A DNA stretch of 7,149 bases from a virus (IMGVR_UViG_2585427792_000017), one strand, 5' to 3'; positions 1,285 to 7,149 are shown, counted from the stretch's first letter. A program made the numbers and translations. Notes: generated by a model not told the origin, from the sequence alone.

Positions 1285-1515
1285 TTAATGGAGTTTGTTT
1301 TGCTGCTGGATGAGCTGTTGAAGCTCGTGCAGATCATCCGCCAGATAGCTGAAAACAGAGGCGGAATAAATGTTTGATAGTGCGTGGCTGCGCTCATGCA
1401 GCATATTGATGTGCATGATTTGCGCGACGCGTGATGCGCGGGAAAGTCTGCGGTTGATTTCAGTCTGGATGTGACGACGCTCCGCGATAGCGCGGTGTGG
1501 TTTGCGGTTTGCCAT
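1285..1515 (-). CDS. Hypothetical early-operon protein, 76 aa
   Basis: ORF in track. ATG 1515..1513 preceded by AAGGGG with 7-nt spacing. The overlapping 205-aa ORF in another frame looks like low-complexity junk. Confidence 0.5.
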   Translation of the reverse strand: MANRKPHRAIAERRHIQTEINRRLSRASRVAQIMHINMLHERSHALSNIYSASVFSYLADDLHELQQLIQQQNKLH

Positions 1516-1577
1516 GGTGTGGCCCCTTGTGTAGTAAGTTGTGAAAACTCACCATCCAGAGCTGCGAAACTGTGGGT

Positions 1578-1653
1578 GGCGAGACGTACGAGGTTCGCAG
1601 TACCGGCTACAAGAGATCCCGGCCCGACCGAAGTCGGCCCCGTACGCCCCGCC
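1578..1653 (-). ncRNA. Putative structured RNA element: 16-bp closing stem enclosing two hairpins, one with a C(UUCG)G tetraloop
   Basis: Arms 1578-1593 and 1638-1653 are inverted repeats. The three non-Watson-Crick positions are A-C on the + strand, which become G-U wobbles on the - strand RNA. Inner hairpins 1602-1623 (one further A-C/G-U position) and 1624-1637 (loop reads UUCG on the - strand). No credible ORF covers this region. Confidence 0.35.
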
Positions 1654-1693
1654 ATAATTCTGACGCGAAAAAAACGTGGCAATACAGTACGCA

Positions 1694-1715
1694 CAAAAAA
1701 ACCGCTGGCGCGGTT
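1694..1715 (-). terminator. Putative intrinsic terminator inside the early operon
   Basis: - strand reads AACCGC-GCCA-GCGGTT (6-bp stem, 4-nt loop) running into a U7 tract (about 1701..1695), 122 nt after the stop of the 99-aa gene. Confidence 0.4.
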
Positions 1716-1837
1716 GTGCGCTTGTGTAGTCAGCAGGCTGCGAAACCCGACACCCGTTTTGTGAGGTGCAGCGGAAATGTAACCTGACTGATTGCGGCAT
1801 GGCAAGCGGTTTTTTTGTGTGTGCATGTTCTGGTTTC

Positions 1838-4359: not shown

Positions 4360-4798
4360 GGCAACACCTTCAAATATTGATGTTTTTAATGAAACTGTTG
4401 GTAAAACTTTTGCGTTTCTTTATGAGTCATTTCCCCGAAAAGTAACCATTGATGTTTGTGCTTTAACCGGTGTTTCCGCTCCAACGTTTGAAGAGAAGGA
4501 CCCGGCGGTCAGAAAGCAAAAACATGAAGCTCTTGTTCTTCGTTATTACTCCATTGAGTGGCTTATTGCTGCTGGTTATGTATCTGCTGATGCTGTTCCT
4601 TTTGAAAGTTTCGATAAGGCGGTACTTACGGCTAAAGGACTTGAATTATTGAAACTTGATCCAGAGTCACTTAAGCAATCGCTTGGAGATAAACTTGTCG
4701 ATGCAACCAAGAGTGGGGCGATAGATGCAATAAAAAGCACCGCCTCATCTGCACTTACTACAGGTATCTCCTTTGCTTTTAAACACTTGTTTGGCTAA
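4358..4798 (+). CDS. Hypothetical protein, 146 aa, opposite-strand cargo gene; function unknown
   Basis: The track ORF starts at TTG 4109. The credible start is ATG 4358 (MATPSNIDVF...) with GAGGT 5 nt upstream; stop TAA 4796-4798. AT-rich relative to flanks. C-terminus ends in a hydrophobic tail (TTGISFAFKHLFG). Confidence 0.6.
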   Translation: MATPSNIDVFNETVGKTFAFLYESFPRKVTIDVCALTGVSAPTFEEKDPAVRKQKHEALVLRYYSIEWLIAAGYVSADAVPFESFDKAVLTAKGLELLKLDPESLKQSLGDKLVDATKSGAIDAIKSTASSALTTGISFAFKHLFG

Positions 4799-4902: not shown

Positions 4903-5109
4903 CTACCCAATGAGCCAAATAACAAACGCTATGAGCACCGCGCCAATAGTGGTCGGAAAAAGACCTCTTGTATAGGCGGCGAGGTAATGAACGTTGAGAA
5001 CAATAAAGCGCTCTTTTTGTCCTGTTAGCTTGTTAAGCAGATAAATCGCTATTACACCCACTTCCAGGTACACAAAGCTCAAAATGGCGCTGATGATATT
5101 GCTGGTCAT
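4903..5109 (-). CDS. Small membrane protein, 68 aa, two predicted transmembrane helices
   Basis: C-terminal part of track ORF 4903..5358, taken from ATG 5109..5107, 10 nt after the cox TAA: MTSNIISAILSFVYLEVGVIAIYLL...LFPTTIGAVLIAFVIWLIG. No Shine-Dalgarno, only an A-rich leader. The upstream 83 codons of the track ORF overlap cox in another frame and look non-protein-like. Confidence 0.45.
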   Translation of the reverse strand: MTSNIISAILSFVYLEVGVIAIYLLNKLTGQKERFIVLNVHYLAAYTRGLFPTTIGAVLIAFVIWLIG

Positions 5110-5119
5110 TTTTGTGTGT

Positions 5120-5641
5120 TTAGTTGCCTTCGCTGCTTTTGAGTCGTTCCAGCTTTGAGCTTCTACCCATATAAACCCGTTTTCCGTTAACGGTCTGGCA
5201 GTCTTCTTTGTCGGCTGGAGAGAACTTTCTTTTCTGGCGGTCATACGTCCAGTAACTTTTCCAGTTGTGCCATTCTGGGGGCTCGTGCTCTGGTAGCTCA
5301 TCAGCCAACTTGTCCCACTCTTTGGCGTTAAACCACCATACTCCGTCTGAGTTTTCATCTTCCGGGTTTGTGCGCGTCTTGTGTCCCGGCATTTGACCGC
5401 GATGAATGGCTACGCGCAGTGCAGATTTTGTTAGCCCAATATATGCCGCGCCTTTTTCCAGAGAGCAAAGCCCGGCGATCGGACCATCCAGCCGCAAAGT
5501 CGCTCCTTTTTTGTAGGAACGCTTTTTCTTGTTTTCTTCGTGCTCGTCGTCGTTGGCGGCATCAATGGATCCGCTGAGTGCGTCACTTTCCTGAAGTGGT
5601 TGGTGGTCAGATAACTCTTTATCGGCAATGAAGTCCCGCAT
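5120..5641 (-). CDS. cox: Cox-like excisionase/transcriptional regulator, 173 aa, with N- and C-terminal extensions
   Basis: ATG 5641..5639 with GAGG 7 nt upstream. The core (LEKGAAYIGLTKSALRVAIHRGQMPGHK...DGVWWFNAKEW) resembles the HTH and following region of P2 Cox as I recall it. It is the first gene of the operon divergent from C. Confidence 0.65.
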   Translation of the reverse strand: MRDFIADKELSDHQPLQESDALSGSIDAANDDEHEENKKKRSYKKGATLRLDGPIAGLCSLEKGAAYIGLTKSALRVAIHRGQMPGHKTRTNPEDENSDGVWWFNAKEWDKLADELPEHEPPEWHNWKSYWTYDRQKRKFSPADKEDCQTVNGKRVYMGRSSKLERLKSSEGN

Positions 5642-5660
5642 TTGTTATCCTCTTGCGTTG

Positions 5661-5700
5661 GTGCGCTTGTTGCGCCTTGTGATGGTTTGTTTTGGCTTGT
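5661..5700. repeat. Four direct repeats with 10-bp periodicity, each ending in TTGT
   Basis: GTGCGCTTGT / TGCGCCTTGT / GATGGTTTGT / TTTGGCTTGT, at 5661-5670, 5671-5680, 5681-5690, 5691-5700. Helical phasing suggests a protein array on one face of the DNA. Confidence 0.4.
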
Positions 5701-5724
5701 AAAGATAACCAAAAGGTTATCTTT
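5701..5724. promoter_or_regulatory. Candidate repressor operator: perfect 10-bp inverted repeat with 4-bp spacer
   Basis: AAAGATAACC-AAAA-GGTTATCTTT. Further GGTTATCTT copy at 5748-5756 (overlapping the C start codon) and a related TGTTATCCT at 5643-5651 next to the cox start. Confidence 0.45.
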
Positions 5725-5734
5725 GTGCGAGAGG

Positions 5735-5761
5735 TTAATACTCAAATGGTTATCTTGTCAA
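5735..5761 (-). promoter_or_regulatory. Candidate early promoter Pe (- strand)
   Basis: Perfect -35 TTGACA (reverse complement of 5756-5761) and -10-like TATTAA (reverse complement of 5735-5740). The spacer is only 15 bp, so this is tentative. The -35 overlaps one GGTTATCTT half-site and the palindrome lies just downstream. Confidence 0.3.
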
Positions 5762-6087
5762 TAGACTACGCAAAAAAGTTACGTCAGATACGTAAGGCGG
5801 AAGGGTTAACACAAAAGCAGTTTGCGGATATTACTGGGTTGTCTTTGGCAACCATAAGGAATTACGAATCGGGGCAAAAGAACGCTAGAGCAAAAATCGT
5901 TGAGGCGGTTCTGCAAGTCGATCGCTTTGAAAAATACATGCTGTGGCTAATAAAAGATAAGACGCTACCTGTCGCCGGGCAGATTGCTCCGGCTCTCTCT
6001 CTTGATGGATCTATTCAGTCGGAGGGCGATCAGGTTTCAATCGGTATTACCCAAAAATCACCCCGATCAGGCCGCAATGTTGGCTGA
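5746..6087 (+). CDS. C: Immunity repressor C (P2 C family), 113 aa
   Basis: The track ORF starts at TTG 5692. ATG 5746 (MVILSIDYAKKLRQIRKAEGLTQKQFADITGLSLATIRNYESGQ...GQIAPALS) aligns by eye with P2 C (HTH, YESG, GQIAPAL). GAGAGG lies 11 nt upstream. Confidence 0.75.
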   Translation: MVILSIDYAKKLRQIRKAEGLTQKQFADITGLSLATIRNYESGQKNARAKIVEAVLQVDRFEKYMLWLIKDKTLPVAGQIAPALSLDGSIQSEGDQVSIGITQKSPRSGRNVG

Positions 6088-6156
6088 CTCTACACATTGA
6101 GCGAATTACATATCGCAAGGAGTGTTTAGTTAATTTATCCGTTGGAGGGGCTAATC

Positions 6157-7149
6157 ATGTCGATTAAGCAACTCAAAGACGGACGTTATCAGGTCGATGT
6201 CAGACCGCAGGGGGCGGAAGGAAAGCGGATTCGAAAAATCTTTGCCCTGAAATCAAAGGCTCAGGAGTTTGAGAAGTATGTGTTACAGAACTTTCATGAC
6301 AAGCCATGGCAGGCTAAGCCAGCTGATCAGCGGCGATTATCAGAGCTGCTTGATGCGTGGTGGATGCTTGATGGGCGTAATCAGGCTTACGGGGATAGCT
6401 ACAGGGTTAGGCTAGGGAAGGTTGTTCGTGAAATGGGAGATCCTCGCGCCAGTCAGATGACGCGAAAATTTATGCTTGAATATCGGTCAGAGAAATTACA
6501 GGCCGGATTAATGCCGTCCAGTATTAATCGTGACTTATGCGTACTGTCTACCATGTTCACGGTGCTGATTGAAGCTGAGGTCTTTCACAACGCGAACCCT
6601 GTACGCGGTATACGAAAACTGAAAGTTCAGAACACAGAGATGGCCTTTCTTTCTGATGATGAGATTGAACGGCTTCTTGAGCGACTGGAGGGTGATGCGC
6701 GTCGTGTTGCCATTCTGTGTCTTTCTACTGGTGCCCGATGGAGTGAAGCATCGGAACTACGTGGAGAGCATATCGTTGGCAACCGGGTGACGTTCTTTAA
6801 CACCAAAAACGGAAAATCCCGTTCGGTTCCTGTGGCGGATTCGGTCGTGCCTCTGATTAAAACCCGTCGAACGGGGTTATTGTATCAGGTTGATTATCTG
6901 AAGTTCCGGGAGATTCTTCAGGAGGTGAAACCGGATTTGCCGAAGGGGCAGGCTACGCATGTCATGCGTCATACATTTGCCACACACTTTATGATGAATG
7001 GCGGAAATATTGTTACGTTGCAACGAATCCTGGGGCACGCAACGATTCAGCAAACAATGACGTACGCTCATTTTTCGCCGGACTTTTTACTGGACGCGAT
7101 CAACTTTAATCCGCTGGCTGAAAGTGTCCATAAACTGTCCATCGATTAG
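6157..7149 (+). CDS. int: Tyrosine recombinase, P2-type integrase, 330 aa
   Basis: The track ORF starts at TTG 6142. ATG 6157 has GGAGG 8 nt upstream. MSIKQLKDGRYQVDVRPQG..., TGARWSE, HVMRHTFATHF and TMTYAHF match the P2 Int pattern including the catalytic R, H-x-x-R and Y. Stop TAG 7147-7149. Confidence 0.9.
   Translation: MSIKQLKDGRYQVDVRPQGAEGKRIRKIFALKSKAQEFEKYVLQNFHDKPWQAKPADQRRLSELLDAWWMLDGRNQAYGDSYRVRLGKVVREMGDPRASQMTRKFMLEYRSEKLQAGLMPSSINRDLCVLSTMFTVLIEAEVFHNANPVRGIRKLKVQNTEMAFLSDDEIERLLERLEGDARRVAILCLSTGARWSEASELRGEHIVGNRVTFFNTKNGKSRSVPVADSVVPLIKTRRTGLLYQVDYLKFREILQEVKPDLPKGQATHVMRHTFATHFMMNGGNIVTLQRILGHATIQQTMTYAHFSPDFLLDAINFNPLAESVHKLSID

Follow-up and report, generated by a model that had tools for sequence, protein, structure and literature searches.

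Introduction

Proteins of the Cox and Apl type link the lysis-lysogeny switch with the direction taken by site-specific recombination, and they have been studied only in minimal forms of 80-90 residues. In P2-like phages, the RDF operators lie between face-to-face promoters and consist of direct repeats that follow one another at intervals of about one helical turn. For Apl of phage 186, seven 6-bp operators with a 10-11-bp spacing lie between pR and pL, and five are present at attP. P2 Cox superimposes on lambda Xis. In P2 Cox, C-terminal helices drive oligomerisation into a helical filament, and the C-terminal region serves both in filament packing and in presenting basic residues to adjacent DNA.

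A 2011 survey of P2-like switch regions divides the Cox proteins into two groups, the proteins of group 2 being larger, with only six residues conserved between the groups; its dataset included the UTI89 prophage PhiECO5. We found that PhiECO5 carries a 522-nt Cox-family gene in the same place as the gene described here, next to dmsA. As a subgroup of larger Cox proteins is noted in the survey, and a prophage with a gene of the same length belonged to its dataset, the long form of Cox is not new. A search of the literature found no paper characterising the long-form Cox or its tails.

Results

Gene organization of the window

The DNA analysed here, referred to as the window, is a stretch of 7,149 nucleotides of viral origin (IMGVR_UViG_2585427792_000017). 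Judged from its sequence matches, the window comes from a P88-like (P2-related) prophage of E. coli and comprises its early and immunity region: three phage records match it with approximately 97% identity across 86% of its length, and its left half is matched by P88 and Xuanwuvirus records. The plus strand carries the gene of a tyrosine integrase (6142..7149; Pfam Int_N and Phage_integrase) and that of a C-type immunity repressor of 113 AA, read from the ATG at 5746 (5746..6087; Pfam HTH_3, E=3.8e-11; PHROG 147) and annotated as a 342-nt gene in relatives. [quoted passage not shown] It is followed by small variable ORFs and then by DUF4761 and DUF4754, beyond which lie a MarR-like gene, an Ead/Ea22-like gene and a derepression-family gene, with the start of replication gene A at the left edge.

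The order of int, C-type repressor and divergent cox is the same in nine related loci from E. coli, Serratia, Salmonella and Yersinia; in the loci of the last three genera cox diverges from a 113-115-AA repressor and the integrase at the edge of the prophage. In P2 and W-phi, too, cox opens the early operon and diverges from C and int, and the three genes of P2 are arranged as they are here. Phage 186 has a CI-type repressor, whereas the repressor of the element in the window is of the P2 C type.

Two other parts of the early region deserve mention. Matches at the Rfam gathering level to the C4 antisense RNA (81 bits; 1572-1659, minus strand) and to isrK (62 bits; 1695-1769, minus strand) lie directly upstream of a Derepression-family ORF (1515..1285, minus strand; PF25738). 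Together these elements are recognized, from their sequence, as a P1/P4-style RNA-controlled antirepressor module within a P2-like early operon, and the module may be a possible route of induction for the P88-like prophage group. Just downstream of cox, the segment 4109-5109 differs from the closest phage relatives. It holds an ORF for a hydrophobic protein of 68 AA (5109..4903, minus strand; PHROG 14475) and, on the opposite strand, an ORF of approximately 142 AA (4370-4798; PHROG 2266), in place of which the relatives have 140-AA and 63-AA ORFs. The segment looks like a cargo hotspot; no PADLOC defence match was obtained within it.

Family membership and distribution

The cox gene (5120..5641, minus strand) runs from the ATG at 5641 to the stop codon at 5122-5120 and comprises 173 codons plus stop. 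It encodes exactly the 173-AA protein quoted in an earlier note on this DNA, which had described it as a Cox-family protein about twice as long as P2 Cox. We can confirm both the family and the length. A match to Pfam Phage_Cox (PF10743) exceeds the threshold (31.3 bits vs. a cut-off of 27.5, E=1.8e-7) and spans model positions 11-86 of 87; it falls on residues 58-129 of 173, placing the Cox-like HTH core in the middle of the protein, as had been claimed. PHROG 23196, a family of long Cox-like transcriptional regulators, covers residues 1-173 with its positions 1-173 of 174 (E=2.6e-113), and PHROG 1831 covers residues 28-134.

P2 and W-phi Cox differ from the window protein in length (91 and 90 AA, respectively, vs. 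173 AA) and share approximately 30% identity with it over 55 residues, the direct similarity to P2 Cox being weak (BLASTP E=0.003, 31% identity over 55 residues; hhalign probability 9%). The earlier note had also proposed an alignment with Apl of phage 186. For this protein of 87 AA, a forced alignment gave 13% identity and no conserved block beyond the HTH glycine; no sequence similarity was detectable, and the likeness to 186 is confined to the layout of the switch.

Long-form cox is present in 311 of 5426 complete E. coli genomes (approximately 6%), always on the chromosome, and the prophage group that carries it reaches into the ST131 and UTI89 lineages. The gene is single-copy in the positive genomes, apart from one genome with two copies, and in all of the E. 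coli matches listed its PGAP name is "Cox family DNA-binding protein". In a large protein collection we found 64 protein clusters from Escherichia, Shigella, Salmonella, Yersinia and Serratia, of which the full-length ones measure 166-192 AA with identity down to approximately 52%. When 1.84 billion representative proteins were searched with a profile, no more than 22 relatives were recovered, which form a graded series of 100-180 AA. In most of these the (P)EWHxW motif is present, the N-tail is acidic and varies in length, and the C-tail is basic; no fusion to another module was seen among the 22. A scan of a genome collection gave one locus only, and the diversity of loci used below was drawn from look-ups of exact proteins.

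Phage and plasmid records also hold intermediates of 118 and 126 AA. Mid-length Cox relatives of 118-129 AA, from the P2-like phages pro147 and NC_070906 and from the Arsenophonus plasmid-prophage pArsFIN13, have PPEWHxW and the core in common with the window protein; their N-tail is also acidic, though shorter, and their C-tail is basic and short. They lack the conserved 37-residue C-extension (KRKF..KEDC..GKRVY..RKSKLEQ) and the IADKELSD start of the window protein.

The protein is an intact, widely conserved relative of P2 Cox that occurs in P88-like prophages of E. coli and related bacteria, and it very probably serves as the Cox-type switch regulator of this prophage group. The gene is common, already annotated, and neither new nor surprising; its tails pose one modest question.

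Start codon and reading frame

The Shine-Dalgarno sequence of cox, GAGG (5649..5652, minus strand), was read from the sequence 7 nt before the ATG. Both the ATG and this site are without variation in the nine related loci, in keeping with the good Shine-Dalgarno that had been noticed at ATG 5641. The accompanying statement that no in-frame start precedes the HTH was incorrect, as codon 49 (5497) is an in-frame TTG with AAGGAG 5 nt upstream in the window sequence. Were this codon used, the functional product would be a form of approximately 125 AA starting at TTG 5497, and the 173-AA form would be minor or non-functional. The TTG is found 9 residues ahead of the first winged-helix strand, and an N-terminus that began there would resemble the N-terminus of P2 Cox. 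Yet even an E. coli relative with 98% identity has TTA at this position, as does a Salmonella relative, and two others have CTG; the upstream ATG and Shine-Dalgarno are invariant, and the residues just upstream of the TTG are under purifying selection. All of this makes the shorter product very improbable. The internal TTG was rejected as a general start, despite its strong Shine-Dalgarno in the window. The earlier note had considered that a non-ATG codon close to the HTH might prove to be the true start; such a codon is present, but it is not conserved and the 173-AA form therefore still holds as the product.

Among 51 family members the N-terminal region falls into 11 length classes, with the frame open in every one, and all N-tail indels between relatives are in frame. 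Apparently frameshifted forms (P0046, P0061 and P0062) are single sequences, and the reading of the long form as a frameshift or artefact was rejected. The suggested check on whether the extensions are conserved or the ORF is split in relatives thus came out in favour of the long frame. In one Salmonella allele (L013, 1411-1911) the conserved start is a TTG instead of ATG, located behind the usual ribosome-binding site. This form has been annotated from an internal ATG as a 136-AA protein because the start position reads TTG; its long frame is intact, and the short form is an annotation choice. The long form is genuine and conserved, and is neither a sequencing nor an annotation artefact.

Winged-helix core and the PPEWHxW segment

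In the AF2 model of the full protein (mean pLDDT 56.5), residues 58-116 (5294..5470, minus strand) form the predicted winged-helix core, with pLDDT of 64-80. The elements follow in the order strand, helix, helix, strand, wing loop, strand, helix, the third helix being predicted at residues 106-115. The top Foldseek match of the model among solved structures was the P2 Cox crystal (4LHF; probability 1.0, TM 0.58 on target). The model thus indicates a Cox-type winged helix with a topology that matches the one described for P2 Cox; P2/W-phi Cox has a core with the same element order and is the best structural match. Searching the solved structures by sequence gave hits at chance level only, to NDUFA12 (E=4.3) and nitrous-oxide reductase (E=0.61). 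The first of these hits pairs residues 103-137 (5231-5335, minus strand), WW...PPEWHNW, with PPEWHGW of NDUFA12 from mitochondrial complex I, and the likeness is probably due to chance.

The core is followed by the PPEWHxW / YWTYDR segment at residues 117-136 (5234..5293, minus strand), in which E123, W124, H125, W127, W131, Y133 and R135 are invariant. The multiple alignment pairs PPEWHNWKSYWTYDR with RPKEIRDGWLMW, the C-terminal segment in P2 and W-phi Cox: RP-E-RD-W--W of these two proteins falls on PPEWHNWKSYW, and the alignable C-terminal pattern P-x-E-x-(R/H)-(D/N)-x-W-x-x-W is shared. The PPEWHNWKSYWTYDR stretch is also common to the 118-129-AA Cox relatives. We regard this segment as the hallmark of this Cox subfamily and, from the alignment, as the counterpart of the P2 Cox C-terminal segment. 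The C-terminal extension reported earlier is therefore only partly an extension: the basic tail of residues 137-173 stands, while the PPEWHNWKSYWTYDR part belongs to what P2 and W-phi Cox also possess. As PPEWHNWKSYWTYDR is homologous to the P2 Cox C-terminus, what the window protein has beyond P2 Cox is confined to residues 1-47 and 137-173. P2 Cox has a fourth helix, whereas no helix is predicted for PPEWHNWKSYW, which aligns with it and lies in a low-confidence region of the AF2 model. Pooled Nei-Gojobori estimates from nine loci gave dN/dS of 0.08 for the core (residues 58-116) and likewise 0.08 for the PPEWHxW segment (residues 117-136).

The acidic N-tail and the basic C-tail

P2 and W-phi Cox are without the 47-residue acidic, disordered N-tail and the 37-residue basic C-tail of the window protein. 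Net charges of -10 for residues 1-37 and +5 for residues 137-173 bear out the acidic N-terminus and basic C-terminus of the first description. This polarity, with an acidic front and a basic rear, holds even among members that the representative search placed in different clusters at 50% identity. Neither tail gave a significant match to a known domain in Pfam, NCBIfam or PADLOC.

The N-terminal extension (residues 1-48; 5498..5641, minus strand) consists of the conserved MRDFIADKELSD, an acidic variable linker and the basic patch KKKRSYKK, with a net charge of +6 for residues 38-48 (KKKRSYKKGAT). AF2 assigns a pLDDT below 50 to residues 1-54, and the N-tail is predicted to be disordered. In the nine loci dN/dS is approximately 0.5 for the linker (residues 13-40) and 0.17 for the basic patch with its lead-in (residues 41-57). 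Even with the basic patch included, the N-tail is net negative in 50 of the 51 family members, and the acidic composition is kept in distant members whose tail sequences are unrelated.

The C-terminal extension (residues 137-173; 5123..5233, minus strand) has a net charge of +5 here and of +3 to +10 in all 51 members. Among the nine loci its pN is 0.26 vs. a saturated pS of 0.75, which indicates that the C-tail is under purifying selection. Two beta-hairpins and a terminal helix emerge consistently from the secondary-structure predictions. An extra folded domain in the C-tail was considered and dropped, as AF2 modelled it with low confidence (pLDDT 44-71), both within the full protein and when residues 104-173 were modelled alone (mean 54.0). 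Since neither tail is predicted with confidence, the models provide no structural argument for the tail roles proposed below.

A natural 157-AA variant of E. coli (P0007; 60 sequences on 12 contigs) ends in ...GKRVW and is without the last 17 residues of the C-tail. Its presence in 60 sequences suggests that at least part of the C-tail may be dispensable. One match in an E. coli genome (H67) covers bases 1-424 of the gene only.

A DNA-binding domain with an unstructured tail outside it is also found in lambda Xis, which like Cox is a small winged-helix directionality factor. In Xis this tail is at the C-terminus, and no sequence similarity to the window protein was detected. Unlike lambda Xis, the window protein also sits in the lysis-lysogeny switch.

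Predicted early promoter, operators and a candidate lysogenic promoter over the cox start

From its sequence we infer an early promoter Pe at 5732..5761 (minus strand), with the -35 hexamer TTGACA at 5761-5756, an 18-nt spacer and the -10 hexamer TAACCT at 5737-5732; the TTGACA is invariant in the nine loci. By a repeat search of the window we identified two copies of an immunity operator (5701..5756, no strand assigned), a palindrome at 5701-5724 and a repeat at 5738-5756, with a spacing of 33 bp. Across relatives the operator sequences change with immunity type and the positions are kept.

The repressor start at 5746 lies within the spacer of the early promoter, and for this reason the lysogenic promoter must lie to the left and fire rightwards across a near-invariant block of DNA. 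This block, which extends from approximately 45 nt upstream of the cox ATG to approximately 40 nt inside cox, is common to relatives with different operators and repressors; in a comparison with the loci L001 and L005-L011, approximately 85 bp around the cox start (window ~5600-5690) were near-invariant. Consensus scoring yielded three weak candidates for Pc in all, and no Pc was reported in the output of the promoter scanner. The favoured candidate (5622..5651, plus strand) spans the cox start codon and comprises the -35 hexamer TCGGCA at 5622-5627, an 18-nt spacer and the extended -10 element TGnTATCCT at 5643-5651. Relative to the cox ATG, its -10 is at -10..-5 and its -35 at +15..+20, matching the geometry of the annotated pL of phage 186, which occupies -10..-5 and +14..+19 relative to the apl ATG. 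In 186, as for the candidate Pc, the -10 of the lysogenic promoter overlies the ribosome-binding site and the -35 is in codons 5-7. The candidate also coincides with the invariant block of relatives of different immunity type. By analogy with 186, Pc would thus overlap the start of cox.

The first codons of the gene show a related pattern. The motif M(R/Q)xxIADKELSD at the start of the protein has the look of a conserved peptide, but in codons 1-12 pairs with identical amino acids have 15% synonymous differences vs. 50-60% in most of the gene. The pooled synonymous proportion is 0.18 in these codons vs. 0.55-0.75 elsewhere, with a dN/dS of approximately 0.6. Conservation of the motif is explained at least as well by a constraint at the DNA level, and codons 1-12 are probably conserved as Pc overlaps them, in the way that pL does in 186. 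Alternatively, the 5′ end could have so few synonymous differences because a recombination junction there has been shared recently.

Taken to its end, a constraint on DNA could leave the N-tail with no function as protein: regulatory DNA of Pc and its flanks would have been absorbed into the frame once translation began further upstream, the region would drift apart from staying open, and only the core and the C-terminal part would matter. Such an account agrees with the DNA-level rather than protein-level conservation of codons 1-12, with a linker that combines dN/dS of approximately 0.5 with many indels, with the predicted disorder of the N-tail, and with P2 and W-phi Cox functioning without such a tail. 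It is harder to reconcile with N-tail indels that are all in frame and a frame that is open in every lineage examined, with an acidic composition retained where the tail sequences themselves are unrelated, and with the clear purifying selection on residues 41-57. On this evidence we regard an N-tail devoid of protein function as unlikely.

Candidate Cox boxes and the attachment arm

Between the early promoter and the cox start codon, the cox strand carries a series of candidate Cox boxes (5658..5701, minus strand), with ACAA at 5700, 5690, 5680 and 5670 at a spacing of exactly 10 bp, and CCAA at 5661. The three-box pattern was found once in the window and was absent from all 200 shuffles, a significance that is overstated as the pattern was written after seeing the sequence. 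ACAA is likewise a motif of low information content, defined after inspection of the sequence. Relatives that differ in immunity type retain the boxes, and in the most divergent Salmonella subgroup they are degenerate but recognisable in the same register. The same layout of phased 10-bp direct repeats between face-to-face promoters is found for Apl in phage 186, the operators of which also show an xCAA periodicity on the sense strand. The P2 cox-box is different, TTAAA(G/C)NC(A/C) vs. the candidate ACAA here. These features make the ACAA boxes candidate sites to which the Cox protein may bind.

In several relatives, ACAA pairs of the same orientation adjoin the int stop codon; they bear no likeness to the P2-type Int arm-site consensus tgTGGaCa. 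The int-proximal attachment arm was seen outside the window, in locus L011 (6380-6493, between dmsA and int). On the int strand of this arm, GCGCCCGCAGGCGC runs into a stretch of T and has the look of a hairpin terminator; an inverted repeat, with approximately 40 bp between TTGCTCCCCCTG and CAGGGGGAACAA, and ACAA repeats next to the int stop codon are also present. These features recur, with sequence changes, in the Serratia, Yersinia and Salmonella relatives.

The repeats on the int side bear on whether the protein takes part in excision at all. It might instead be a Cro-like repressor of the early region only, with the directionality of excision supplied by another gene of the prophage. The TIGR01764 excisionase domain could be taken in this sense, as its match is far below the threshold (13.4 bits, E=0.076, vs. 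a cut-off of 28.8). P2 Cox, however, scores equally poorly on the model (14.8 bits), and this failure therefore says little on function. Moreover, the characterised relatives P2 Cox, W-phi Cox and 186 Apl combine switch and excision roles, ACAA repeats of the same orientation lie beside int as described above, and no second excisionase-like gene was found among the window ORFs scanned. A protein restricted to early repression is, on these grounds, distinctly improbable.

Discussion

Taken as a whole, the results are best explained, in our judgement with fair probability, by a long-form Cox of a P88-like prophage that acts on DNA in the switch and in excision and in which the tails have roles of their own. 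As the first product of the early operon, the protein would bind the phased repeats at 5658-5701 (four ACAA and one CCAA) cooperatively through its winged-helix core, between Pe and Pc, and in this way stop repressor and integrase from being made. At the attachment site, it would direct excision by binding comparable repeats adjacent to int. A dual role in shutting off Pc and as directionality factor is likely by analogy with P2 Cox, W-phi Cox and Apl.

Both tails are translated in this protein. As a tentative guess, the acidic N-tail with its lysine patch may compete with DNA for basic surfaces, raising the threshold of cooperative binding as well as its specificity, and the C-tail, which comes after the segment that mediates filament formation in P2 Cox, may add contacts to the DNA backbone or between subunits. 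Alternatively, the N-tail could be a degradation signal or an arm that contacts Int. The tail of lambda Xis is such an Int-contact arm.

A bolder version, which we consider quite unlikely, makes the N-tail a built-in DNA mimic that restrains the winged helix and the basic C-tail, with codons 1-12 doubling as Pc DNA. If true, Cox would assemble on the phased boxes only above a sharp concentration threshold, and the 5′ coding sequence of cox would belong to the very switch that Cox controls. The protein would then be an autoinhibited directionality factor, a principle not described for Cox, Apl or Xis in the literature examined.

Several genera retain the character of the two oppositely charged tails. 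If the tails tune cooperative binding, stability or the contact with integrase, they would affect the ease with which the prophage is excised. Such tuning, if true, would extend a well-understood system in a useful but incremental way.
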